Positions 2,685 through 61,411 of a DNA stretch of 64,000 nt are shown piece after piece. Under the pieces are notes generated by a model. It was not told the origin of the DNA and did not search any database. It saw only the letters and a program-made list of their open reading frames with translations. The stretch's first letter is position 1. Each line of letters begins with the position of its first letter. The translations under genes and the position numbers were made by a program. Origin of the DNA: Candidatus Bathyarchaeota archaeon. GTDB taxonomy: Archaea; Thermoproteota; Bathyarchaeia; Bathyarchaeales; Bathycorpusculaceae. Location of the stretch: contig CAWHDT010000009.1 of assembly GCA_963828195.1 (NCBI GenBank), positions 96,001 to 160,000 on the forward strand, in the 5' to 3' direction.

Positions 2685-5306
2685 ATGAAAGCGGTGTTTG
2701 CGGCACTGTTAGTTGTTCTTTTAAGCGGATTAGTGGTTTTCGGCGCAACTCCTTTTGGAAAATCACAAGGCTCCACGTCAGCTAACATTGTGATATCTCC
2801 GTCATCTGTAACTGTGAACGTCGGCCAGTCCGTCCTGTTCAACTCGTCTGTTTTGAATTTGCAGGGTTATCCCATTTACCAATGGTACGTGAACGGCACT
2901 GCGGCGCCGGGGGGAGTTTATTCCTCTTGGGCTTTCACACCGACGGCACCGGGATGGTACAGTGTATCATTAGAAGTTTCGACAACAGTGACCGAGGCCA
3001 ACCCCAATCCCAATAATTCGACTTCTACATCCGTTTTGGAGCCCGCTGGAGTATCTAACACGGCGCAAGTTCTAGTAACCACGTCTTCGCCCACCGGGTC
3101 ATTTGGATATTCAAATTCGACTTCGCAAGCCAACGGGCATGGCGAGCAGTATTTAGCTGTAGGTTCAAGGTACACGTTGTCTGTCGATGCGAACGTAACT
3201 TCCATTTCAGCCGATATGAGTTTTAACTTTGTAAGCTACCCAAATGGGTCAATCATATACTCCTTCGCCATCTACAACCAAGAAAACGGGTTACTAGGCA
3301 GCCTAATCGCTCAAACCAGCCAAGGCGCACTAACCAACAATGACCCCTCGGCAATGGCATGGCATACTCTGTGTTTTGCGTCGCCTGTCACCCTAACCCC
3401 CGGAGCATACTGGCTTATGGAACTTGATAACGGCAGCGGCGGTAACAGCATAATGATCGCTTCAAACCCAGACGTTAGCGGCGTTTCAACTGTGGAGGCA
3501 GAAGCCGGCAGCACGACTTTTCCAACCACGTTGAATTCGCCGATCTACACGCAAAATTACGCTGAATGCATCTTTGCATCCTACACTACAGGCACAACAA
3601 CAAACCCCATCAGCGGCTCAACACCTATTCCGACGCCGACAACAAACAATGGCGGCACCTCAAACTGGCCAATGTTTCAAAATGACCCCTCACATTCGGG
3701 CTACTCCACAATTGCTGGTCCAACAACAAACCAAACCCTGTGGATTTACCCAACAGGCAGCTCAATTTTATGTTCCCCCGCGGTTGCAAACGGCGAAGTC
3801 TACGTGGGCTCCAACAAAGGCGCAGTTTACGATTTGGATGCCGCAACTGGAAACACGATCTGGATTTATCAAACCGGCGGCGCCATTTATTCTTCTCCAG
3901 CAGTTGCTAACGGTGTGGTCTACGTTGGTTCGTGGGACGATTGCCTTTATGCTTTGAACGCTACTAATGGCGAGAAATTGTGGAGTTACCAAACAGGCAG
4001 CTACGTGCAGTCTTCTCCCGTCGTTGTTAACGGGGTCGTTTACATAGCGTCTTATGACGCAAGCGTTTATGCTTTAAACGCAGAGACTGGAGCTTTGCTG
4101 TGGAGTTTCGCAACAGGCAGCGGCGCGGTAGGTTCTTCCCCGGCTGTTGTCAACGGCGTCGTCTATATAGGTGATAACGGAGGAAACGTTTTTGCCTTGA
4201 ACGCTTCTAACGGAGACAAGCTGTGGAGTTACAAAGCCGGCGACACTATTTATTCGTCAGCAGCCGTAGCCAACGGCGTAGTCTACGTAGGCGCCGACTC
4301 AGGCAATAATGGCAGCATCTGCGCGTTAAACGCTAATACAGGGTTGGTGCTGTGGACTTATCAAACAGGCAACTTATGGGTGTATTCCTCTCCAGCGGTC
4401 GCCAACGGAGTAGTCTATGTGGGCTCTTATGCACCTCAAGGCCAAGATGAAGGCAGCCTTTACGCCCTGAATGCTTCCAGCGGAGGCTTGCTGTGGAGTT
4501 ACCCGACAGGCGGCGAAGTATTTTCATCTCCAGCAGTCGCCAACGGAATAGTCTATATCGGCTCTGAGAACAACAATATCTACGCTTTGAACGCGACCAG
4601 CGGGGTTAACTTATGGAGTTACCAAACAGGCGACGATGCGGGTTGGTCTTCTCCAGCTATTGCCAGCGGGGTTCTTTACGCCGGCTCAGAAGATGGTAAC
4701 GTGTACGCTTTTAGTTCTTCCACTCCATCTACCACGCCAACTTCAACGGCTACTCCAATTCCGACAAATGAGTCAGCTACAACCGCGCCTGCAACGACAA
4801 ACACAACAGTGGACCTTGCAATCAGCGGAAACATAACTAGCTCACAGATGTCTGACGTCACAATTTCAACAAACCAGTCAGCCACCTCCTTGTCTTTCAC
4901 GGTGACGGGCGTGAGCGGTACGATAGGCTTTGGCAATCTGACAATCCCCAAAAGCGAGGTACCTGACGGTTCCATCCCGATAATCTATATTGACGGCCAA
5001 ATCGCTCAAAACCAGGGCTACACGCAGGACAGCAGCAACTACTACGTGTGGTTCACAACCCACTTTAGCACGCACCAAGTAACAATAGTGTTCGCTAAAA
5101 CATCTTCGGATAGCTCTATCATGCTTCAGGCGATTTATGGAGTAGCAGTTGCTGCGGCAGTCGTGGTGATTGTTATGGTTGTCCTCAAATTAGCGATAAA
5201 AGACAAACCGCACAAGCAGATGGCAAGCGGTCAACCTTCGACAATAATTCCCAACAATCAAGCCGCCTCCCCCCTACTATTTACAACTCATTCTGCGAGT
5301 AAATAG
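2685..5306 (+). CDS. Secreted, C-terminally anchored PQQ-type beta-propeller repeat protein with Ig-like and DUF4082-like N-terminal domains
   Basis: Signal peptide; about 8 repeats of SSPAVANGVVYVGS..D..YALNA..G..LWSY; Thr/Pro linkers; C-terminal TM helix. Confidence 0.85.
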   Translation: MKAVFAALLVVLLSGLVVFGATPFGKSQGSTSANIVISPSSVTVNVGQSVLFNSSVLNLQGYPIYQWYVNGTAAPGGVYSSWAFTPTAPGWYSVSLEVSTTVTEANPNPNNSTSTSVLEPAGVSNTAQVLVTTSSPTGSFGYSNSTSQANGHGEQYLAVGSRYTLSVDANVTSISADMSFNFVSYPNGSIIYSFAIYNQENGLLGSLIAQTSQGALTNNDPSAMAWHTLCFASPVTLTPGAYWLMELDNGSGGNSIMIASNPDVSGVSTVEAEAGSTTFPTTLNSPIYTQNYAECIFASYTTGTTTNPISGSTPIPTPTTNNGGTSNWPMFQNDPSHSGYSTIAGPTTNQTLWIYPTGSSILCSPAVANGEVYVGSNKGAVYDLDAATGNTIWIYQTGGAIYSSPAVANGVVYVGSWDDCLYALNATNGEKLWSYQTGSYVQSSPVVVNGVVYIASYDASVYALNAETGALLWSFATGSGAVGSSPAVVNGVVYIGDNGGNVFALNASNGDKLWSYKAGDTIYSSAAVANGVVYVGADSGNNGSICALNANTGLVLWTYQTGNLWVYSSPAVANGVVYVGSYAPQGQDEGSLYALNASSGGLLWSYPTGGEVFSSPAVANGIVYIGSENNNIYALNATSGVNLWSYQTGDDAGWSSPAIASGVLYAGSEDGNVYAFSSSTPSTTPTSTATPIPTNESATTAPATTNTTVDLAISGNITSSQMSDVTISTNQSATSLSFTVTGVSGTIGFGNLTIPKSEVPDGSIPIIYIDGQIAQNQGYTQDSSNYYVWFTTHFSTHQVTIVFAKTSSDSSIMLQAIYGVAVAAAVVVIVMVVLKLAIKDKPHKQMASGQPSTIIPNNQAASPLLFTTHSASK

Positions 5307-5370: not shown

Positions 5371-6195
5371 TTAGAGGTATTTTTCGTAGGTTTTAAGCTG
5401 CGGATTGTTGGCTTTGTTGACGAAGAGTTTGCCTGTGCCGTGCTCTGCCAGGTCGCCTAAAAACACGTAGAAGGGTCCTGCGACGCTTTGGGTGTCGTCG
5501 ATTTTGACTTTGGGTTTAACGCTGTCAACGGTGAATCCCGGCATTACCTCTTGAATTGTGCCTGTTATGACGATTTTGCCGCCTGTCATCAATGCGCCCG
5601 CCCGCGTGTCACATTCCTTATCCACAAGGATTGAGCCTTCGCTCATGTGGTAGCCGAGGAATCTGCCTGCGCCGCCTTTGATTTTAAGCACTCCGCCTTT
5701 AAGGTAGCAGCCTACATCGCTGCCGACTTTACCGTCAACAACTATCAAGCCGCCCTTCATGCCTGTACTGCTGCTTCCACGGTACGGAGAAGCCAAGTAG
5801 TCACCTGCATCGCCGTGAACCTCAATGGTTCCCGCTTTCATCTCGTTACCTGTCCACCCGCCAACGTTGCCGTTTATCGTGATTTTGCCGCCCAGCATTT
5901 TTTCGCCAGTGTGCATGCCGCAGTCGCCGTTGACGACGATTTCCCCATTTTTCATGCCTGAGCCTATGCGTTTAACTTTGCCGCAGTCGCCGTTTATGGT
6001 TATGTCGGGGGTTTGAGCTGGGTCTTCGATTATTTCGAAGAGGTCGCCAAGTTTCAGTTGGCGGTTTCCTTCCGTAACGGGCAGAGCTGCTATTTCAGCG
6101 GTGGTTTTGCCTTTGAAAACAGCGGGGCTTATGCATGCTGCCTGAACGGGCACTTCGAATTTTCTAAGGGGCACAAGAGTTATCATTTTAGACAC
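5371..6195 (-). CDS. fwdC: Formylmethanofuran dehydrogenase subunit C
   Basis: GxxMxxG/GXGXG beta-helix repeats; last gene of the fwdDBAC operon. Confidence 0.95.
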   Translation of the reverse strand: MSKMITLVPLRKFEVPVQAACISPAVFKGKTTAEIAALPVTEGNRQLKLGDLFEIIEDPAQTPDITINGDCGKVKRIGSGMKNGEIVVNGDCGMHTGEKMLGGKITINGNVGGWTGNEMKAGTIEVHGDAGDYLASPYRGSSSTGMKGGLIVVDGKVGSDVGCYLKGGVLKIKGGAGRFLGYHMSEGSILVDKECDTRAGALMTGGKIVITGTIQEVMPGFTVDSVKPKVKIDDTQSVAGPFYVFLGDLAEHGTGKLFVNKANNPQLKTYEKYL

Positions 6196-7879
6196 TTGCC
6201 TTCACAGTTAATTTTTCTGGAACTTTCAAGTAATGGTCAAACACTGGGTAATTGTCGTATTCAATGGTCCAGTACTGCTTGAACTTGCGTTTCATTTCCT
6301 CATCGATCACGCAGGGCTCTTTTGTCTGCACATCAAGCCACATGGTTCTGCCGCTGGCTTTGCTTACTACTTCGCCGTCTTTAACCACAACTTCCCCGTC
6401 CTTAATCGTGTAAGCTGCGTGCTTGAACGCTTTACGCGCAAGCTTGAACTGTTTAGCTATATCGGTTGTTTCAGGATTAATAGCATATATAGCGACGTCT
6501 GCGTCTGCACCCACGCCGAGGTGACCCTTATTTTTGAGACCCAGCGCTTTAGCTTGCCCCGCACGAGTCATAATTGCCAACTCATACAGCGTCAATTCCC
6601 TGTCAATTGAGGGTAACAGGCTCTTTTTCAATGCTTTCTTGTGAATGTGATTTAGCGTTGCCTGACGTGCATCTTTGCTGGTGAGCCAAGCGAGAATTCT
6701 TGGGTAAGCAAAAAATGGTCCCGCGTTCGGGTGGTCTGTTGTCATGAAGATTTTCCAAGGATCCTTAATTAGCAAGGCTAACTCTAACCCGATTGACCAC
6801 TGTGTTGCATTGACGGCGTTGTTTTTCTTGTATGAGAAGGGTATGATTCCGCCGCTTGTCTCAGTTTCAACGTCGCTGTTAACCCATTTGTGGCCGCTTA
6901 GCTCGTAGAGCTCGAACTCGAAAGGTCCGTCAGCAGTCATGGTTGTGGTGTCTGTGAAGATGATTTGCCCCATGTCAACGGTCACGTGGCTGTGTGCGTT
7001 GATGTAGCTTGAGATTTCTTCTGCTGCTGATTTAAAGTGACCCCAGCCGTCGCCGGCATAACTGCTGAATTGCAAGTGGGTTATGTGCGCAACTGGTTTG
7101 CCGTCTGTTGAAAGGTCTTCAAGCGCCCGCATGGTGTCAAGCGTAGTGGTGTAGTTGCCTGGCAACCCCAGATTGTTCGTGTGAAGATGAATGGTGTGGG
7201 GAAGATTGAGCAATTTGTTAACTTTAACTAAACCCCTCATTATTTCGCGTGGAGTAATGCAGAAGTTTGGAACTTGATCGTCAATGGTGTGTACGTTGTG
7301 TCCGAAACCCCATGATTCTAAGCCGCCTGGGTTCACGATTTTTATGGCGTAGCCTTTGGTTATGTCAAGCATCCAGGCAACGTGCCGTGCACATTCCTCG
7401 ATGTTGCCTTTAGAGAGGTTCTCCAGCACAAACCACCAGTCGCCCAGCAGCGGGTACGTGGCTTTGTCAACAAGCGGAATATCGTTTAATTCTTCATGTG
7501 TGTGTTTGGCTTCCAGAGGCGCCATGGATGGATTCATGATTGTTGTATAACCCATCTCTGAATAGCGGTAACCAGTAACGAATGTAGACGGAATCGAGTA
7601 GCCAGTGCCAGCGCGAGTCATAGCTGTTTTGCGCACCACATCTTTAACGTGGTCTTCGGGACGAACAATTCTGCCAGTGTTAACTTCGCCGCCTGCAACG
7701 TGAGTGTGAATGTCAACGCCGCCAGGCATAACCGTCAATCCTGCGGCATCAATCACTTGAGCCTTGCGCGTTACTTTCTCAACGATTTTGCCGTTTTTGA
7801 TGGATATATCCATTTTTTCGCCGTTAACACCGTTTATGGGGTCAAAGACGAAGCCGTTCTTTATGATTAACTCAGTCAT
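6188..7879 (-). CDS. fwdA: Formylmethanofuran dehydrogenase subunit A (amidohydrolase)
   Basis: MPGGVDIHTH, IKIVNPGG, IHLHTNNLG, TTDHPNAGPF motifs. Confidence 0.97.
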   Translation of the reverse strand: MTELIIKNGFVFDPINGVNGEKMDISIKNGKIVEKVTRKAQVIDAAGLTVMPGGVDIHTHVAGGEVNTGRIVRPEDHVKDVVRKTAMTRAGTGYSIPSTFVTGYRYSEMGYTTIMNPSMAPLEAKHTHEELNDIPLVDKATYPLLGDWWFVLENLSKGNIEECARHVAWMLDITKGYAIKIVNPGGLESWGFGHNVHTIDDQVPNFCITPREIMRGLVKVNKLLNLPHTIHLHTNNLGLPGNYTTTLDTMRALEDLSTDGKPVAHITHLQFSSYAGDGWGHFKSAAEEISSYINAHSHVTVDMGQIIFTDTTTMTADGPFEFELYELSGHKWVNSDVETETSGGIIPFSYKKNNAVNATQWSIGLELALLIKDPWKIFMTTDHPNAGPFFAYPRILAWLTSKDARQATLNHIHKKALKKSLLPSIDRELTLYELAIMTRAGQAKALGLKNKGHLGVGADADVAIYAINPETTDIAKQFKLARKAFKHAAYTIKDGEVVVKDGEVVSKASGRTMWLDVQTKEPCVIDEEMKRKFKQYWTIEYDNYPVFDHYLKVPEKLTVKASV

Positions 7880-13534: not shown

Positions 13535-13768
13535 GTGGCAGTTATGGTAAAAATCAACGGTAACAAATTCACTGTAATCTTAAGAGAGGAGCCCGACGGT
13601 GGTTATTCAGCGCAATGCTTGGAACTTCCCGGAGCAATCAGCGAAGGATACAACCGCAAGGAAGCGCTTGTCAACATTAAAGAAGCCATCGAAGGGTACC
13701 TCGAAGCTTTCCCCGAAGAGGTTGACCAGCTTAAATGCAAGAAAGAGCTGGTGGAGATAACTGTCTGA
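13535..13768 (+). CDS. hicB: HicB family antitoxin
   Basis: FTVILREEPDGGYSAQCLELPGAISEG..EEAL.NIKEAI pattern. Confidence 0.9.
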   Translation: MAVMVKINGNKFTVILREEPDGGYSAQCLELPGAISEGYNRKEALVNIKEAIEGYLEAFPEEVDQLKCKKELVEITV

Positions 13769-13916
13769 AAAGTTGCCGTCTACATCTTGGCGTACGGTAA
13801 TTAAAGCTCTCAGCAAAAAAGGCTTTAGAGTCGCGGGTCAAAGAGGCAGCCACATATTTCTTACTGATGGAAAACATAAACTTACGGTTCCACGGCATAA
13901 CCCTGTTCTTGAATAG
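13761..13916 (+). pseudogene. hicA: HicA toxin, N-terminal two-thirds (CTG start overlapping hicB), C-terminus missing
   Basis: LSEKLPSTSWRTVIKALSKKGFRVAGQRGSHIFLTDGKHKLTVPRHNP then early stop; GSH catalytic motif. Confidence 0.8.
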
Positions 13917-13959
13917 CCCTCAAAATATCTTCAAGATAGAGCTTGATGTCTCTTGTCAT
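13882..13959 (-). pseudogene. Truncated HEPN (DUF86/HepT-like) toxin, N-terminus only
   Basis: MTRDIKLYLEDILRAIQE start overlapping the MNT stop (ATGA); runs into the hicA remnant and stops. Confidence 0.7.
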
Positions 13960-14255
13960 ACATAGATTGTCTCGTCAAGTATTTTATCCTTGATTCGTGT
14001 TTTAAGAGCGTCTTTTTGAACTAAGTCAACCTTCACCTTTAGTTTTCGACTTAAAAACTGTTTAAGCCCAATAAAATCCACCAAGTCAATGTCATTTGGC
14101 TCAAAAAAAGATACAAGAATATCCAAATCGCTTCTTTCATTTTGACAGCTCTGAGAATATGAACCAAATATGCCTACGGTTTTCACTTGAAACTCCTTTT
14201 CTAGGACTGGCTTAAGTAGCATAAGTTGCCTTTTAAGTTCATCAAGTGTTCTCAT
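13956..14255 (-). CDS. Minimal nucleotidyltransferase (MNT antitoxin of MNT-HEPN)
   Basis: GIFGSYS...SDLDILV and VKVDLV motifs; 99 aa. Confidence 0.9.
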   Translation of the reverse strand: MRTLDELKRQLMLLKPVLEKEFQVKTVGIFGSYSQSCQNERSDLDILVSFFEPNDIDLVDFIGLKQFLSRKLKVKVDLVQKDALKTRIKDKILDETIYV

Positions 14256-15373: not shown

Positions 15374-15461
15374 GCAGGGGTCTCCAAGCCTGGTCAACGG
15401 AGTAGGGCTTAGGACCCTATCGCGTAGGCGTTCGTGGGTTCAAATCCCACCCCCTGCACCA
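15374..15461 (+). tRNA. tRNA-Leu(TAG), CCA encoded
   Basis: GCAGGGG...CCCCTGC-A-CCA; anticodon arm TAGGG-CTTAGGA-CCCTA; long variable arm. Confidence 0.96.
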
Positions 15462-15763
15462 CTCTAAGTAAAAGTATAGCTTTTTTTGGTATGTTTGCCT
15501 GGTTTTTTGTGATCTATCGTGTTAAATGACAATGAATAAAAAATAAAATTGAGCGTTTTAAGAGAGGAAATGCCCATAGCGATCAAACAACTTAATTGCA
15601 ATAGCGGGTCACATAATAAAAATTGAAAGTAGAATTTTCTAGTTCTTGTTGCAGTAGAGAAGTTGGAATCATAAAGGTAGGCGGTATCGGAGTCTTTTCA
15701 GTGGTTCTGTTAAGCCTCTGTTGCTTGACAGAATTCTTCTCCGTGTGAAAAATCGTCCCCAAA

Positions 15764-15985
15764 CTATATTTCGTTGTAGCGGTTGCAGTTTGGACACTTT
15801 AACACAACATTCTTGAATTTTCCTTCGATGATGTTCTCGCCTAGTTTTGATCCACAATTGCCGCATAGGTAAGTAGTGTTACCACCCTTGCTTTTTATTA
15901 CTGGCAACGTTTTGGATGCAAAAACGGTTCGGTTTCCCTTTTCTGGTTCTGGTATAGTTTTTAATTTTCTGTCCATTTTATCCAC
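15764..15985 (-). CDS. Small zinc-ribbon protein
   Basis: YLCGNCG...KCPNCN two CxxC pairs; 73 aa. Confidence 0.7.
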   Translation of the reverse strand: MDKMDRKLKTIPEPEKGNRTVFASKTLPVIKSKGGNTTYLCGNCGSKLGENIIEGKFKNVVLKCPNCNRYNEI

Positions 15986-16110
15986 TTACTTCGGCTTTTA
16001 TTGGTTTGACTTGGATTATAAGTTTATTGTTTTCTGCTCTTTTCGATTAGCAGTTTCAAATCAATTACACTGATAAAAAAGGGGAATGCGTGATGCCTCC
16101 ACGACTTTAG

Positions 16111-16134
16111 GGGTTCAAATCCACCCCCTGCACC
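16111..16134 (+). repeat. tRNA-Leu 3'-end duplicate (att-like) no. 1
   Basis: GGGTTCAAATCC-ACCCCCTGCACC; 1-nt deletion relative to 15436-15460. Confidence 0.9.
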
Positions 16135-16156
16135 TTTAAGCACTCGTCAAAACTCT

Positions 16157-16208
16157 ATGTCCTCGTGTCCATGTGCGTCCTTGATGGACATTTGCGGACA
16201 GGCGGGCA
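16157..16208. repeat. Dyad-symmetric six-box site GTCC-4-GTCC-6-GTCC-5-GGAC-6-GGAC-4-GG(G)C, copy A
   Basis: Boxes at 16159, 16167, 16177, 16186, 16196, 16204; same spacing as 17591-17642. Confidence 0.85.
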
Positions 16209-16215
16209 ATGTTGT

Positions 16216-17598
16216 CTATACTTGCCGATGGTAACCAAGCATATCTTCTGCCATGTTCTTTAAGCTGGGATCAACAAAATAAATTTTGGTTTTGCCCTTA
16301 CTCTTTATGGCAAGTATGGATCTTTCGTTTAATGCTTTTAGATGCTTTGCAAGAGAGCTTTTCTCGGCTGCCGTTGCTTTACTAAGTGCTTCATCCCTTC
16401 CGTAGGTTTCACCTTTCTGGAAAAGATACATTAGTATCTTGTATTCTGCGTCGCTGGGTTTTAGCATCTTGACATATGACATGCCAGCTTGATCAAGAGT
16501 AATTTTCTTATAAACTGTTGAGTCGAGCTTCCTTATGTCTTGGCTTGGCAAAGCAGATAAGAGCAGGTTGGAAAGCTCGTCCAAGATTAAGCGTATGCGA
16601 CCTTCATATTTTTCGTAGATTTCTGATAGCAACTTCTTATCTGCAAATTTGTAGATGGATATGCTAGGATCAATTGAAGCATCAGAATACATCTGTGATA
16701 AGAAAGCAAGTACATCTTCTTGGCATGGAGCAAGTACTTGTTCATAGTGGAATATGTCGGGATGGATTGGTTTTAGTCCATTTCTCCTTTTCAAAACTAT
16801 AATTACGTGAGCTAAATTTGCGTTCGTATAAAAGACATCTTTCAACAGTGTCATGATTGTTTTCTCGATTTGAGCGTTTTCTAGTTTGTCTACCTCATCT
16901 AGACCGATTACTACGCCGCGATAGCCCATGGTTTGCAAAAGGGCAAATCCTCGTCTCAGCAGATTAACAAAAACTGTATGAGAAAGAGTTTCAGTCCTTG
17001 CAACCAGAACCTGTTCTTGTTCCTCCTTAGTCAAATCCACCTTTATTATCGGAATTCCGACCGTGCTTGACAGACCCTGTGTTTCTATTGTTCCATTTGT
17101 AAATGTAATTTGATCAGAAGCATAAAGAATGGATAGAAAAGAGAGTTCTTCAAGGCTTTTACTTATTGATAATTTCCTTTCAAACAATCTCTTTAAGGTT
17201 CCAAGCATACTCGCATTACGCAAAGCTTCGGTGCTGATGGCAGAACCGAAAGCTCTTAAGAATTCTTGCTCGACGCCTTTAGCATTCTCAACCCCTACAG
17301 GAACTCTGTACTTTATCGTGAAATAGTTATCTTTAGTAAGAATGTTAAGTACCTTATTTAGGAGTGAGGATTTGCCTACTCCTAGATCACCGTGGAGGGC
17401 TACTTTGTAGCTTTTGCTCGTGGAGATTCCCATGTATATTTTTTCAACGATTTCTTTGCGATCTCTAAACAAGCTCTCGTCACGTTTCAGGCTCGCTTTG
17501 TCGATACCCGGTTCAAATAGTTCAAAGACCTGAAATGGGTTTGCTTTCAAATTAAACCGCGAGAGCGCCTTAACACTTGCTTGGTAATCAATGTCCAT
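16216..17598 (-). CDS. P-loop AAA+ (STAND/KAP/Orc1-like) ATPase with C-terminal winged HTH; start at 17598 or 17616
   Basis: FNLKANPF, Walker A GDLGVGKS, Walker B VVIGLDEVDK, GRIR, C-terminal wHTH (KSSLAKHLKALNERSIL..KGKTKIYFV). Confidence 0.85.
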   Translation of the reverse strand: MDIDYQASVKALSRFNLKANPFQVFELFEPGIDKASLKRDESLFRDRKEIVEKIYMGISTSKSYKVALHGDLGVGKSSLLNKVLNILTKDNYFTIKYRVPVGVENAKGVEQEFLRAFGSAISTEALRNASMLGTLKRLFERKLSISKSLEELSFLSILYASDQITFTNGTIETQGLSSTVGIPIIKVDLTKEEQEQVLVARTETLSHTVFVNLLRRGFALLQTMGYRGVVIGLDEVDKLENAQIEKTIMTLLKDVFYTNANLAHVIIVLKRRNGLKPIHPDIFHYEQVLAPCQEDVLAFLSQMYSDASIDPSISIYKFADKKLLSEIYEKYEGRIRLILDELSNLLLSALPSQDIRKLDSTVYKKITLDQAGMSYVKMLKPSDAEYKILMYLFQKGETYGRDEALSKATAAEKSSLAKHLKALNERSILAIKSKGKTKIYFVDPSLKNMAEDMLGYHRQV

Positions 17599-17642
17599 AT
17601 GTCCACACTTGTCCATTATGGACGATACTGGACACGCGGACA
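17591..17642. repeat. Dyad-symmetric six-box site GTCC-4-GTCC-6-GTCC-5-GGAC-6-GGAC-4-GGAC, copy B
   Basis: Boxes at 17593, 17601, 17611, 17620, 17630, 17638; overlaps the ATPase start and abuts a TATA-like box at 17641-17648. Confidence 0.85.
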
Positions 17643-17781
17643 TATAAGGTTTTTTGAACACAACCAACGCGATTTTCTGTTTCCGAGAGTTCTTCGTGTT
17701 TTTCCAGATGAAACAATCCCAATAAAAAAGGAAGAAAGCTGCAGAAAAAACGGTGGCTGGCGATATCGCCAGTTTGTGGGG

Positions 17782-17807
17782 GGGTTCAAATCCCACCCCT
17801 TGTACCA
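17782..17807 (+). repeat. tRNA-Leu 3'-end duplicate (att-like) no. 2
   Basis: GGGTTCAAATCCCACCCCTTGTACCA; 2 mismatches in 26 bp. Confidence 0.9.
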
Positions 17808-17929
17808 TATGGATTATTTTTGGTTAAACCGAAAGTCGGGTGGCTATCTTGTTAATGGAGAATAATCTGCGGAAGGCTTAAGCCTTAAGCCTCCATCTCT
17901 GTTTACACTAAGCACGGAAAGGTTTTTGC

Positions 17930-18169
17930 ATGGTTCATCGAAGAGTTCGAGGCGGAAAGTTCAAGATAAAGCATGTTGAGAAGCAACCTCCCGTTGAGTT
18001 GGGAGAGGAATTAGATGTGCACATAACCGACGTTTGTCCTAGCGGAGATGGGATGTCAAAAATTAGGGGCTACGTCATAATTGTGCCAAAAGCCAAGCCG
18101 AGAAACCGAGTGAAGATAAAGGTCACGCAAGTCGGCGAAAAAGCGGCAACGGGCGAAATAATCGAGTAA
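17930..18169 (+). CDS. Single TRAM-domain protein (archaeal RNA chaperone type)
   Basis: PPVELGEELDVHI....GDGMSKIRGYVIIVPKAKP..RVKIKV. Confidence 0.9.
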   Translation: MVHRRVRGGKFKIKHVEKQPPVELGEELDVHITDVCPSGDGMSKIRGYVIIVPKAKPRNRVKIKVTQVGEKAATGEIIE

Positions 18170-18204
18170 TTCTTTTTAATTACTTTGGTGCTAACTATGA
18201 AATT

Positions 18205-19479
18205 CTACAGCATTTGAGCTATGCTCGCGATGAAGAGTATTGTTGTTATTATGATGGTTGCTAATGCTAATGTCAAGGTGGCTTTCCCAAGTTTGTATTT
18301 GCCCATTAAATCCTTGTTTCGGGTGATAATTATCAGAGGTATTAGAATAAACGGCAGCAGGAGCCCATTTAGGTATTGAGTGAAGATCATTACTTGAATT
18401 TGGTTTGGTATGAACGCGAAAATTGCAGAGATAACGAGCGCCAAGACGAATACGAACCTGAATCTTCTCGCCTTAATGCGGCTCTCCAGACCCAAAAATC
18501 CGAAGGCGGAGTAAACGGTGCCCAACCCCACGGTAACCACAGCCAATATTCCAGCGAAAGCAAAGGCAACTGCGAAAACGTCCACCCCTGCTAAACCAAA
18601 TTTGATTCTGAAAGGCGCTGCTATATCGGCGAAGCTAGTTACCGATTTGCCCCCGATGAGCAATGCGGCACTTGCGATTATGACGATAGTGAGAATTGTG
18701 CCCATCAGGATGCTGACAAAGGAATCGACTCTTTCTTTCCGCACGCATTTCCGCTCTTTAGCTAATTCTTCTTTTCTTTCGCATTCGTCTTCTTTCATCA
18801 GGTCTTCAACTCCTTTCTCGTGGTGATGAGCCCACCCTTTTTCGTAAACTAATCCGCTGTGGAGGATGACGTAAGTAGGTGTAATGGAAGCGCCTATTAT
18901 CGCCTCGGCGTAGTAGAAGGAGTTAGCTTTCACTGATGGAACAAGGGAATTGTAAACTATCTGGCCGAAGTTTGCGTGGAGCGAGAAGAGAAAATATAGG
19001 TAGGCTAAGAAGATGGCAGTGACCAGGATCATCAAGATTTTCTCTAATGTGTCGTATGAGGTTAAGAAAACAAGAAAAATATTCAGCAGAATCGATATGG
19101 ATACTGCTATGGGGTAGGCTATGTTGAATAGGAAAGAAAACGCGAGGCTTAGACCAATTATTTCAGCAGTTAGTGTGGCAAGGTTCAGAAACAGCGAGAC
19201 TGCGAATAGCGGAAGTGAATAGCGTGGTCCAAACCTTTGGTGTATATTTTCCGCTAAAGTTTTTCCAGTGACGACGCCTAGCCGGGCACTAATCTCTTGT
19301 ATTCCTATTAGCAAGATACCTGAGTAGAAAGCTGCCCATAACACTGAAAAGCCAACCGCTGCCCCAGCCGCTGTTGCCGCAACGATGCTGGCAGGATCAA
19401 ACAGCTCTACTGAGACGAGGACTGCGGGGCCAAAAACGGAAATTACCGTTAAGACCTGCTTTAGGTTAATCTTTTTCAT
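18205..19479 (-). CDS. NRAMP-family divalent metal transporter
   Basis: QEISARLGVVTGKTLAE motif; about 11 TM helices. Confidence 0.88.
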   Translation of the reverse strand: MKKINLKQVLTVISVFGPAVLVSVELFDPASIVAATAAGAAVGFSVLWAAFYSGILLIGIQEISARLGVVTGKTLAENIHQRFGPRYSLPLFAVSLFLNLATLTAEIIGLSLAFSFLFNIAYPIAVSISILLNIFLVFLTSYDTLEKILMILVTAIFLAYLYFLFSLHANFGQIVYNSLVPSVKANSFYYAEAIIGASITPTYVILHSGLVYEKGWAHHHEKGVEDLMKEDECERKEELAKERKCVRKERVDSFVSILMGTILTIVIIASAALLIGGKSVTSFADIAAPFRIKFGLAGVDVFAVAFAFAGILAVVTVGLGTVYSAFGFLGLESRIKARRFRFVFVLALVISAIFAFIPNQIQVMIFTQYLNGLLLPFILIPLIIITRNKDLMGKYKLGKATLTLALATIIITTILFIASIAQML

Positions 19480-19851: not shown

Positions 19852-20961
19852 ATGAATAAAAAATTGCTAGTAGCCATTTTTGTAACATGTTTTCTTTTTT
19901 CAGTCGTAGTTTTTTCCCAAATAGCCTATTGTCAAAAATCAACACCAAGCTCTACGACACAGCCAACCCCCGCTAAAGCAGGAATACTTGGAAGCACCTC
20001 TGCCTTATTACTTATTGGCGGAATCGTAGCGGTTGTAGCGGTAGTTGTTGTAGTAACTTTTGTTTTCGTTTTTAAGAAGAGGGGGCGTGGAAAGAGTCTA
20101 AATGGTGGAGTTTCCACTGGTGCCTTCGAAGAGCGGGTGATAAAAAAATTCAATGGTAAACCAAGTGACCCATCTACGGGCGTAAGCGGGTTTACTGAGG
20201 GAGGTCAACCTCTTTTGATCAAACAATCCGATCCTGTCCGCTTGGCTGATGTAGAAGCTTTTGTCAAAGTGCTAGTAAAAGGAGGAGCACAAAAGGGCAT
20301 AATTGTTGCACCCGATTTTGATGACACAGCTCTGGAGGGAAAAATTACCGCGTCGGAAAATGGAACTGAGCTTCAGCTGCTACGCATAAATGAACTGATG
20401 AATAAGCGTTATGCTAATAGAATTAAAGAGCTTGCTATTTCACAGGTTTCCTTTGAGGCGCCAACTACATATGCAACAGATGACCCAGTGACCAAAACAC
20501 CAACTTTTGTTGAAAGAACGCCAAATGAGCCGCAAAAAGACGGTCTGAAACCTCGTGTCTTCATATCTAACAGCAGCACCCAAGTTTCTGACCAGATAAA
20601 GAAAATGTTGGATTTTCTGCATTATGACTACGTTATGGGCGATAAAGAAGAAACAACTGTGCCAATTTCTGAAAACAAATTCGGGTTGATGCAAGACTGT
20701 GATTGCGCAATAATAAACATCGCTGCCGCTGAACAGGAGCGAAGGTACAGCGGCCTCTACATCCTTAATTCGAACGTAACCTCTGAAATCGACGCGACCT
20801 ATCTGAAATACAATACACAGGTTATTCTGTTGGTTGAGCGAAAAGTAGAGTTGCCTCCAAATCTTAAGGGTCTAAAAAGGATTGAATATGACAGTGATGA
20901 TTTATCTTTCAACGCAGCAATGGATCTCAAGAAGGCATTGGAAGACTTTAAGAAACTATAG
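19852..20961 (+). CDS. Membrane-anchored protein with degenerate Mrr-like domain and C-terminal TIR-like nucleotide-binding domain
   Basis: Signal peptide and TM; KQS..V...VEAF...KGIIVAPDF (Mrr-like); PRVFISNS...CDCAII...NSNVTSEI...LPPNLKGL..IEY (TIR-like). Confidence 0.75.
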   Translation: MNKKLLVAIFVTCFLFSVVVFSQIAYCQKSTPSSTTQPTPAKAGILGSTSALLLIGGIVAVVAVVVVVTFVFVFKKRGRGKSLNGGVSTGAFEERVIKKFNGKPSDPSTGVSGFTEGGQPLLIKQSDPVRLADVEAFVKVLVKGGAQKGIIVAPDFDDTALEGKITASENGTELQLLRINELMNKRYANRIKELAISQVSFEAPTTYATDDPVTKTPTFVERTPNEPQKDGLKPRVFISNSSTQVSDQIKKMLDFLHYDYVMGDKEETTVPISENKFGLMQDCDCAIINIAAAEQERRYSGLYILNSNVTSEIDATYLKYNTQVILLVERKVELPPNLKGLKRIEYDSDDLSFNAAMDLKKALEDFKKL

Positions 20962-61257: not shown

Positions 61258-61411
61258 CGGGAGGTAGCTCAGCCTGGCAGAGCTCTCGAGCCTGCTAACT
61301 TGCTTAGCTGGTGGAGACGCTGTAGAGGTCTACCCATGGTGGGCTTCATTCTAGCCTGCACAGGCCACAGAAACCGAGCTGTCGCAGGTTCAAATCCTGC
61401 TCTCCCGACCA
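61258..61411 (+). tRNA. tRNA-Tyr(GTA) with two BHB introns (61289-61318 at 30/31; 61326-61372 at 37/38)
   Basis: C1-G72/A73; spliced anticodon arm CTCGG-CTGTAGA-CCGAG; both introns form bulge-helix-bulge motifs; CCA encoded. Confidence 0.9.

Follow-up and report, generated by a model that had tools for sequence, protein, structure and literature searches.

A bathyarchaeial ATPase gene of Orc1/Cdc6 fold with private six-box arrays at both ends, in a cassette between tRNA-Leu 3'-end repeats

Archaeal genomes and defence islands contain many copies of winged-helix AAA+ ATPases of the AAA_16, AAA_22 and ATPase_2 types. We know of no function assigned to them in the literature covered. In iteron replicons, such as P1 (repA) and F (repE), the initiator gene is flanked by iterons. 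A comparable layout is found in bipartite bacterial origins (H. pylori oriC1-dnaA-oriC2, and B. subtilis), where the gene for an AAA+/HTH initiator stands between arrays of its own sites and the upstream array lies over the promoter. In the part of PMC3479198 available to us, dnaA is placed between two DnaA-box clusters and loops are described between the arrays, and an excerpt of PMC13643167 describes opposed oligomers on two box clusters. An Orc1/Cdc6 paralogue of Sulfolobales, Orc1-2, serves as a transcription regulator, according to extracts of PMC6061795 and PMC9738581. Finally, cryptic archaeal elements integrated at tRNA genes are bordered by direct repeats that copy the 3' end of the tRNA, and Cdc6/Orc1 homologues are encoded by some of them; the smallest archaeal element named in the available part of PMC6563490 is 2.6 kb long and has an integrase.

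The locus described here lies in a 64,000-nucleotide stretch of DNA from a Candidatus Bathyarchaeota archaeon (the window), in which a first-pass annotation had noticed two identically spaced dyad arrays, with 11 of 12 boxes exact, at the two ends of an ATPase gene. Both arrays were recovered. They follow the 49-bp pattern GTCC-N4-GTCC-N6-GTCC-N5-GGAC-N6-GGAC-N4-GGAC, and all five spacings are equal in the two. The promoter-proximal array (17593..17641, no strand) has six of six boxes and matches at all 24 specified bases; the stop-proximal array (16159..16207, also no strand), 8 nt past the stop codon (16216-18), has five exact boxes and a single mismatch, its last box being GGGC. The array pair is real and far above chance: 100 dinucleotide-preserving shuffles of the window gave an expectation of 0.00 matches and a largest count of 0. 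Across all 2,830,904 bases of the assembly, a search allowing up to two mismatches finds the pattern at two places, both at the ATPase gene, and a reversed control pattern occurs nowhere. Even the three-box half-site GTCC-N4-GTCC-N6-GTCC is confined to the arrays of this gene, in a genome with 9,851 occurrences of GTCC/GGAC. The genome-wide pattern search proposed at first pass therefore found a motif private to the gene and not the operator of a regulon.

The refined box is closer to TGTCCA. The spacers diverge between the two arrays (the central ones are ATAAT and ATCAA), and they self-pair at only 5/12 and 3/12 positions, as against 12/12 and 11/12 for the boxes. Because pairing is limited to the boxes, a reading of the arrays as hairpins or RNA structures was ruled out, and Rfam had 0 families above threshold across 15500-18300.

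The ATPase gene (16216..17598, minus strand) encodes 460 amino acids, with further in-frame ATGs at 17616 and 17643 and a longest open reading frame that extends to 17808. The promoter array overlaps the ATG at 17643-17641, and its box 1 is directly abutted by the TATA-like hexamer TTATAT (17642..17647, minus strand). The stop-codon spacing of about 8 bp, the ATG overlap and the TATA-like abutment reported at first pass all hold. The ATG at 17643 is probably not the start; judging from the geometry, the true start is likely a downstream ATG, at 17616 or 17598, so that the promoter array is probably untranslated, with the TATA-like box on one side and the conserved protein-coding part on the other. 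The N-terminal pattern MSACPxxSxMDxxGHxD, found in six further homologues, agrees with boxes that are conserved and spacers that vary freely. Upstream of the promoter, a spacer rich in T runs (17648..17781, minus strand) that is unconserved among homologues leads to a tRNA-like repeat.

The Orc1/Cdc6 architecture that had been suggested for the protein is borne out by fold. A structure model based on a 50-row alignment (pLDDT 88.6), which superseded an earlier model from 12 sequences (pLDDT 63), predicts an AAA+ base, a lid and a C-terminal winged helix in one chain. Foldseek matched the model to the Orc1/Cdc6 fold (E 2e-8), and the best full-length fold matches were to archaeal Cdc6/Orc1, namely 1fnn_B (P. 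aerophilum Cdc6; Z 17.9, residues 14-460) and 2qby_A (S. solfataricus Orc1-1 on DNA; Z 17.1). These have the same three domains, with 331-337 residues aligned, and the likeness includes a gene beside its sites (presumed ones here) and an inverted-element layout. However, the ATPase has only about 15% identity to archaeal Orc1/Cdc6, and about 130 residues separate strands 2 and 3 of its core. It also misses the TIGR02928 cut-off of 181.3 bits, with 15.4 bits (E 0.0063) confined to the P-loop region, whereas the same model gives 424.5 and 263.3 bits for two canonical Orc1/Cdc6 genes that the genome carries at other places. Unlike Orc1/Cdc6, it is an accessory and rare gene and not a core one, being present in 0/40 relatives and in 1/400 other genomes of the class. 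The boxes, at 4-6 bp with 8-10 bp spacing, are not ORB-like.

The Walker A (GDLGVGKSS) and Walker B (VVIGLDEVD) motifs are invariant in homologues. The protein passes the gathering score of AAA_22 (PF13401; 29.4 bits against 27, E 1.1e-6) and has no match to Pfam ATPase_2 (PF01637) at E <= 0.01; a relative, P0015, is below the ATPase_2 cut-off (28.7 against 33.2 bits). Its weak profile relatives are PF01637, AAA_16 and AAA_22 proteins of 400-460 amino acids with a C-terminal wHTH and the same domain order, and the ATPases SSO1545 (2fna) and PAB2304 (2qen) are fold matches at Z 12.7-13.3. Matches in the ESM Atlas were restricted to unnamed or AAA_16-type clusters. At the C terminus, profiles match HlyU, NolR, SmtB and ArsR chains (1e-7 to 1e-5, positions 350-425), and the winged helix aligns with CzrA (Z 11.7, residues 362-460), making it ArsR-like.

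Homologous loci were then compared. Five are full length (the window, L004, L016, L006 and L005), with 41-100% protein identity, unrelated surroundings and different neighbour genes at every locus; L007 and L008 are truncated copies. The prediction that homologues would be flanked by analogous arrays was upheld. A 5' array lies between the TATA box and the start codon in 5/5 full-length loci (degenerate in L005) and is present in both truncated copies, and a 3' array follows 6-35 nt past the stop in four of the five (the window, L004, L016 and L006). L005 has no 3' array, another gene following directly, so the second array is not obligatory. In 7/7 five-prime arrays a TATA-like box abuts box 1, as TTATAT in L004 and as TTTAAA(T) in L016, L006, L007 and L008. 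The window and L004 share similar DNA from 15 nt before box 1 onwards, and none past the 3' array. By these comparisons, the TATA box, array, gene and array behave as a unit of about 1.5 kb that moves as a whole. None of the 12 public runs listed for this stretch is recorded as RNA; contigs from four of them (four studies) bridge each array.

Over eight arrays, identity is 0.84 in the boxes and 0.37 in the spacers. This supports selection on the boxes and not on the spacers, in agreement with the first-pass view that the diverged spacers point away from a recent duplication. Of 401 class genomes, two match the gene profile and the same two match the motif, which occurs solely next to the gene; the reversed control gives 0. 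The arrays might instead be an operator of the ordinary kind, bound by a host regulator, or have arisen by a recent duplication and have no function, and the palindromic shape agrees with this. Either reading is very improbable, since the motif is missing elsewhere in this genome and in all 399 searched genomes of the class that lack the gene, and since the arrays are kept, with diverged spacers, at 41-76% protein identity.

The first-pass annotation had also entertained the arrays as crossover sites of a tyrosine recombinase that make the gene an excisable cassette. Each gene end does have one dyad around a short central spacer. Partner sites of such a recombinase share an identical overlap of 6-8 bp, whereas the central spacer here is 5 bp and differs within the cassette (as given above); inside L006 it is N0 in the 5' array and N5 in the 3' array, and in L005 it is N4. 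These differences do not fit a shared crossover region. Six boxes also exceed what a core site needs, and no recombinase is present nearby. We therefore disfavor this idea, which has hardly any chance of being correct.

We infer instead that the arrays are private binding sites of the ATPase itself, serving autorepression and the bridging of the cassette ends, a model that we consider about as probable as all others combined. It keeps the core of the first-pass proposal, in which the ATPase recognizes both ends of its own gene, as the best reading, with binding as a predicted step. In this model, the ArsR-like winged helix would read the box TGTCCA, and each array would consist of two opposed three-box half-sites. 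The spacing within a half (8 and 10 bp) is invariant across homologues and the central spacer is free (N5, N0, N4), so each half-site may line up three protomers head to tail, in the style of AAA+ initiators, to give two facing trimers. Because the central spacer varies, a single hexameric unit is not the sole option, and each half may act by itself. The promoter array occupies the whole interval between TATA box and start, and a complex assembled there would block the pre-initiation complex and repress the gene. The array past the stop codon would be a second anchor for the same oligomer, allowing the ends of the 1.5-kb unit to bridge into a loop shielded from outside transcription.

Since the genome has no other site, sequence-specific binding would serve the ATPase's own cassette alone, which would be a hallmark of a selfish, self-maintaining unit. 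Orc1-2 is alike in pairing an Orc1/Cdc6-type AAA+ module and a winged helix for sequence-specific gene regulation and not initiation, but it is a global regulator with many targets, whereas the window ATPase has candidate sites at no gene except its own. It is hard to see what a host would gain from a looped autorepressor without further targets, and this speaks against regulation being the whole function. If autoregulation alone proves true, the locus would be a clean natural six-site, two-operator loop formed by an Orc1/Cdc6-fold protein. The model also turns a "hypothetical ATPase" into a testable proposal, that of a protein that targets DNA nowhere except at the two ends of the gene encoding it.

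Two features went beyond the first-pass annotation, the first being repeats of a tRNA 3' end around the cassette. An intact tRNA-Leu(TAG) gene (15374..15461, plus strand) heads an integration hot spot and is the source of the repeated 3' end, its own copy being 15436-15461. Repeat A (16110..16135, plus strand), a decayed part of the tRNA from T-loop to 3' end with 77% identity to the tRNA copy, is 23 nt outside the stop-proximal array; repeat B (17782..17807, plus strand), a second copy with 92% identity, is 140 nt outside the promoter array. The two repeats are 1672 nt apart and bracket the cassette, with a repeat score of 16 against a shuffle maximum of 13, and ARAGORN called neither tRNA-like fragment as a tRNA. 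An integrative element at a tRNA gene is expected to be bordered on either side by such direct repeats of the 3' part. The ATPase is the sole gene between them, and no integrase gene is present there. Sequence content after tRNA-Leu varies among relatives, and for this reason a clean empty site is not definable.

The second feature is a set of paralogous ATPase genes with the same design. Three other genes of the same superfamily in this genome form single-gene cassettes of 1.3-1.4 kb between direct repeats; two have private arrays at both gene ends, and the third has one at the 5' end only. The geometry common to the four cassettes is a repeat, 36-140 nt, the 5' array, the gene, the 3' array (in 3/4), 10-52 nt and a repeat. 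The paralogues belong with the PF01637, AAA_16 and AAA_22 ATPases; the window protein is itself outside Pfam ATPase_2.

The cassette could be an integrated mini-replicon, in which the ATPase is the initiator and the arrays are origin-recognition boxes. In a circle, about 190 bp would separate the arrays, with a tRNA-like att core, the promoter and the T-run spacer between them, much as inverted ORB elements enclose an unwinding region; once integrated in the chromosome, the origin would be split and silent. The Orc1/Cdc6 fold over the full protein length, sites private to the ATPase gene, the bracketing by tRNA 3'-end repeats and the recurrence of the geometry in four cassettes of the genome all agree with this proposal. 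Precedents are the bipartite origins, with an initiator gene between box clusters and loops (PMC3479198, in part), and integrated archaeal elements whose Cdc6/Orc1 homologues are presumed replication proteins (PMC6563490, in part). The correspondence with iteron and bipartite origins is one of architecture only, namely an initiator gene between two putative own-site arrays; the protein families and domains of life are different, and the window array is itself a 3+3 dyad. Against an initiator role, no consistent AT-rich unwinding element emerges at the flanks, since the window and L004 have a raised AT content there and L016 and L006 do not, and TIGR02928 is not reached. Relatives were also absent from viral contigs (0/168 candidate stretches, with no five-box match) and, by tblastn, from plasmid and phage records, and the protein matched PHROGs only at E > 0.003. 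Direct repeats flanking L004 and L006 were not above shuffles, an apparent repeat (AAATTCT...) at both L004 ends being judged chance in AT-rich DNA. No circle or empty-site joint was reported in contigs of the four public runs, which cannot show absence. On balance, we consider an initiator role unlikely, though worth keeping in view.

Arm-type sites of lambda attP are at opposite ends after integration. By analogy with these, or with AAA+ regulators of the TnsC/MuB type, the arrays could be end sites on which the ATPase organizes integration and excision at the att core, with a recombinase acting in trans. The AAA+ module does match Tn7-like TnsC (VchTnsC profile 8.5e-12; fold Z 14.3), the 3' array is 10-23 nt from the repeat in three cassettes, and three tyrosine recombinases over cut-off are encoded in the genome, all on other contigs. 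However, no transposase (TnsA/TnsB, TniA) gene was present beside any of the six loci examined, nor was a TnsA/B-like or integrase gene in or beside any copy. In relatives, small cassettes without any ATPase are also found between tRNA-Leu fragments, so integration at tRNA-Leu does not require the ATPase. This role for the arrays is quite improbable in our view. If either it or the origin reading proves true, these would be the smallest archaeal integrative elements, and an archaeal equivalent of initiator genes that are flanked by their own sites.

More broadly, the ATPase cassette points to an undescribed class of tiny single-gene mobile cassettes. Searches of the literature on PF01637/DUF234 and COG1672/COG1373 ATPases outside subscription journals turned up no description of such cassettes, and the available part of PMC3424549 gives DUF234 and DUF4143 only as nuclease-fold domains. 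It is possible, and we propose it tentatively, that Bathyarchaeia carry integrase-less single-gene integrative mini-elements of 1.3-1.7 kb, well below the 2.6-kb element with an integrase, in which the ATPase reads private arrays that are an origin, attP arms or both. The sole gene would encode a winged-helix protein, either of the Orc1/Cdc6 fold or of the "archaeal ATPase" type, and on circularization the arrays would come to lie on both sides of an att core and a spacer, the latter some 100-190 bp long. In that case, many unexplained archaeal ATPase genes of PF01637 type would be selfish replicator-initiator cassettes and not host genes. A private cis element is kept at both gene ends through deep divergence, and paralogues follow the same plan with other boxes and target-site repeats. 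In a scan of 1009 open reading frames, the top three inverted similarities between 5' and 3' flanks all fell among the 15 ATPases of the superfamily (hypergeometric 2.7e-6), and each of those three genes has its own box, essentially private to it. For the tRNA-Asn cassette, whose boundaries favor a mobilization role of the arrays, homology between two species has exactly the two arrays as its limits (346-1584 of L045, 83%), and the copies in both species are flanked by tRNA-Asn-like fragments.

The ATPase gene, on the minus strand with its stop codon at 16216-16218 and in-frame ATGs at 17643, 17616 and 17598, lies between two arrays of the form GTCC-N4-GTCC-N6-GTCC-N5-GGAC-N6-GGAC-N4-GGAC. The first-pass annotation had claimed such a pair at the gene ends, and the pair is indeed present: all boxes of the 5' array (17593-17641) are exact, and the 3' array (16159-16207) has one mismatch, its last box being GGGC. 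Shuffles of the window sequence gave 0.00 matches. The genome search proposed in that annotation, with up to two mismatches allowed, matched at these two places only in the assembly (2,830,904 bases, 9 contigs, the window being C9:96001-160000), and a reversed control pattern matched nowhere in it. The genome contains 9,851 GTCC/GGAC occurrences, and a genome-wide search found the three-box half-site and the inner four-box core to be confined to this gene's arrays.

To compare arrays, we used the DNA of four further full-length homologues (L004, L016, L006 and L005) and two truncated ones (L007 and L008). Arrays were found at both gene ends in three homologues. L004 (75% identity) has six exact boxes in the 5' array (1965-2013) and five boxes in the 3' array (3400-3448). 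In L016 (45%), five boxes follow TTTAAAT, with the start codon in place of box 6, and a 3' array of six exact boxes (2783-2831) begins 6 nt past the stop codon. L006 (41%) has six 5' boxes with a central spacer of N0 and four 3' boxes with a central spacer of N5. The expectation of flanking arrays holds for L005 (47%) at the 5' end, where a four-box core includes one degenerate box (GTCT) and has a central spacer of N4, but not at the 3' end; no 3' array was found there, and the next ATPase gene begins 3 nt past the stop codon. The truncated genes retain the array, and a 3' array is not applicable to them. Six more homologues, for which we have the protein alone, begin with MS(A/T)CPxxSx(M/T/V)DxxG(H/Q)xD, which the boxes encode when read in that frame; the residues that vary fall at spacer codons. 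This is consistent with their carrying the same array.

The box consensus is TGTCCA. Boxes have a pairwise identity of 0.84 over the eight arrays of canonical register, and spacers one of 0.37; of 12 spacer positions, only 2 to 7 pair with their counterparts in the dyad. This pattern argues for selection on short protein-binding boxes, as originally proposed, and we rejected a hairpin as the target of selection because so few spacer positions pair. Within a half-site, the N4 and N6 spacings are invariant, whereas the central spacer varies, which suggests to us that each array consists of two independent three-box half-sites. The same variation (N5 in the window, N0 and N5 in L006, N4 in L005) led us to discard the earlier suggestion of tyrosine-recombinase crossover sites, whose central spacer should be identical in the two partner sites.

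In archaeal promoters, the TATA box precedes the start site by ~25 nt. A TATA-like box (TTATAT or TTTAAA) directly adjoins box 1 in all seven 5' arrays, and the start codon comes after the 5' array in L016, L006 and L007. Based on homology, geometry and known archaeal promoter layout, the true start codon in the window is probably the ATG at 17616 or 17598, and the 5' array is probably promoter and leader, not coding sequence.

The family is rare. An index of 5.8 billion proteins contains 13 other relatives of the protein (11 at 65-79% identity and two at 45-46%), and 16 clusters among 1.84 billion representatives match it at E <= 1e-30. A single-protein search was positive in none of 40 related genomes. 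The family profile is positive in 2 of 401 genomes of the class, this genome included, and the six-box pattern (up to two mismatches) occurs in the same two, solely beside the gene, with no matches for the reversed control. Judged from these comparisons, the paired arrays are real, selected and gene-specific.

DNA similarity between the window and L004 starts 15 nt before box 1, with none detected further upstream or past the 3' array; that between L016 and L006 starts 14 nt before box 1. Neighboring genes differ at every homologous locus, and include restriction-modification genes, an AbiV-type HEPN protein, HNH and PD-(D/E)XK nucleases, a DDE transposase and other ATPases; those in the window include a nucleotidyltransferase, Nramp and a weak TIR-like match. 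The limits of similarity and the differing neighbors argue that the conserved unit is TATA-like box, array, gene and array.

This cassette is flanked by copies of the 3' end of tRNA-Leu(TAG) (15374-15461, plus strand), located on the plus strand at 16110-16135 and 17782-17807. The first is separated from the 3' array by 23 nt and the second from the 5' array by 140 nt; the two copies are 1672 nt apart. Genus relatives keep the tRNA-Thr/tRNA-Leu pair, which is followed by short variable segments between more tRNA-Leu 3' fragments; one relative (G013) has four T-loop cores inside 2.3 kb. The repeats and variable segments place the cassette, on sequence grounds, in an integration hot spot, with att-like repeats at its borders. 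No integrase was found inside the cassette, and the five tyrosine-recombinase matches in the genome (three above the cut-off) are all on other contigs. A transposon-like role is disfavored by the absence of a transposase.

Pfam assigns the protein to generic P-loop families only, with AAA_22 barely above its cut-off and AAA_16 and KAP below theirs. An AlphaFold2 model from a 50-row alignment (pLDDT 88.6, pTM 0.84) has archaeal Cdc6/Orc1 proteins as its top full-length structural matches (1fnn_B, Z 17.9, 331 residues aligned; 2qby_A, Z 17.1), followed by ORC/Cdc6 subunits and then TnsC (Z 14.3), BrxC, PAB2304, MalT, NLRs and SSO1545. Profile matches are 8g28_A (3.5e-12), VchTnsC (8.5e-12), S. 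solfataricus Cdc6-1 (2e-8) and RdrA, and the last 90 residues match ArsR/SmtB repressors. Walker A and Walker B are invariant across the family, and ~130 residues separate core strands 2 and 3 of the model. The Orc1/Cdc6 architecture assigned in the first-pass annotation is therefore supported by fold, but not by sequence, since the protein is far below the NCBIfam Orc1/Cdc6 model. Judged from the model, it is a putative DNA-binding ATPase that is Orc1/Cdc6-type in shape and working, yet outside the canonical family, of which two genes are present elsewhere in this genome.

We compared the 5' and 3' regions of 1009 ORFs, each 300 aa or longer, for ungapped similarity. The window gene had the top inverted score (26; median 10; non-ATPase maximum 17), and the second and third scores (21 and 19) also belong to ORFs matching the family profile, of which there are 15 (hypergeometric 2.7e-6). 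Three further cassettes in this genome follow the plan of arrays and flanking repeats. The first, at C1:316573-317658 (L044, G000:C1:316201-317900), encodes a 361-aa ATPase_2 protein, and the 17-nt repeat ACTTACnGGACGTAAGTA occurs there in two copies ahead of the ATG and in three across the stop codon; a 47-nt direct repeat (94%, copies 1327 nt apart) flanks the unit, and we judge that its upstream copy sits where the preceding ORF ends. The second, at C5:222802-223956 (L045, G000:C5:222401-224200; ATPase_2 and wHTH, 384 aa), has palindromic arrays of TATATAGAATTCTCTATAT type ahead of the start and beyond the stop; tRNA-Asn flanks it on one side and a 59-nt copy of that tRNA's 3' part on the other, at a spacing of 1405 nt. 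The tRNA-Asn type of cassette is also present in a second species (L049), likewise between tRNA-Asn-like fragments, and the homology of this copy to L045 runs exactly array to array (83%). The third, at C4:79726-80982 (L046, G000:C4:79401-81300; AAA_14 and DUF4143), has 5' repeats only, two 18-nt direct repeats before the ATG, and is flanked by a 41-nt direct repeat, 1439 nt apart, that looks like a tRNA-Cys 3' part from its anticodon-loop-like CTGCAGA. Two tRNA-Cys genes are located 4.5 and 6.7 kb from it.

Each cassette's box is essentially private to its own gene. ATPase genes adjoining the homologues in L006 and L007 also have their own shared motif at both ends: GTAAAC boxes (L007:3095-4476) surround L007:3255-4316 (minus), and a 28-nt inverted repeat, GCGTyTTTCTTTATATAGGTAAGGGGGG (L006:2618-3922), immediately precedes L006:2653-3894 (minus) at its start and recurs after its stop. 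Box arrays (GTATTATACA; GATTGTAACAA) at C9:78940-79040 and C9:5629-5660 mark the starts of further ATPase_2-type genes (C9:79016-80197 and the divergent pair C9:4258-5628 / 5809-7107), for which we looked for a matching 3' array and found none. That different ATPases have different private boxes amounts to coarse covariation, and points to each product as the putative binder of its own arrays.

We favor self-recognition by the gene's own product. The winged helix would read the boxes of its own gene, and head-to-tail AAA+ contacts would load three protomers per half-site. An occupied promoter array would repress the gene, and the stop-proximal array would permit bridging and insulation. Regulation alone seems incomplete as the protein's purpose, because the array is found nowhere else in the genome. 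The same facts also fit two roles in a circular form, in which the arrays would be ~190 bp apart (23 nt + 168 nt): they could be attP-arm sites, or gene and arrays could be an initiator-replicator pair. Against the origin reading, no consistent AT-rich element was found near the arrays, and no plasmid or viral relatives were found.

The system has known parallels. A report on H. pylori oriC1-dnaA-oriC2, which resembles the window gene in placing an initiator-type gene between its own-type sites, describes loop formation and likens the system to B. subtilis and many plasmids (PMC3479198). Orc1-2 acts as a regulator, according to two papers (PMC6061795, PMC9738581), and integrated thaumarchaeal elements carry Cdc6/Orc1 homologues, the smallest named in the consulted part of that source being 2.6 kb, with an integrase (PMC6563490). 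Our literature search, which covered mainly openly accessible journals, turned up no published account of private arrays on both sides of an archaeal ATPase gene, nor of single-gene cassettes at tRNA genes that lack an integrase. The iteron layout of P1 and F is a further parallel. Initiator-type proteins whose own genes are surrounded by iterated sites are a known theme, which takes a new form here on a tiny mobile cassette, with the binding, oligomer form and biological role of the protein as predictions.

Several minor observations concern the surroundings. The 650-bp segment between tRNA-Leu and the first tRNA-like fragment (15462-16109) is 80-89% identical in many genus genomes, and directly follows tRNA-Leu in both loci in which the join is covered (G056, G001). 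Among its small ORFs, that at 15764-15985 (minus) weakly matches a zinc ribbon. The segment resembles a mini-cassette in its own right within the hot spot. In L037 (G013:C4:10500-20800) and L038 (G056:C1:740600-745600), two or three more tRNA-Leu 3' fragments, spaced ~550-1000 nt, lie past tRNA-Leu(TAG), a layout that recalls a cassette array, with att-like repeats separating very short segments. At 13535-14255, adjoining tRNA-Thr, an MNT-type nucleotidyltransferase gene (13956-14255, minus) and small ORFs look like a HEPN/MNT-type toxin-antitoxin pair. The C-terminal part of a 369-aa ORF at 19852-20961 weakly resembles the CAP12/Pycsar TIR effector domain (E 0.0035, below cut-off), and the ORF is a possible defense gene. 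Finally, a 151-nt tRNA at 61258-61408, called by Rfam (38.3 bits) and missed by ARAGORN, probably owes its length to a long intron in the tRNA gene.
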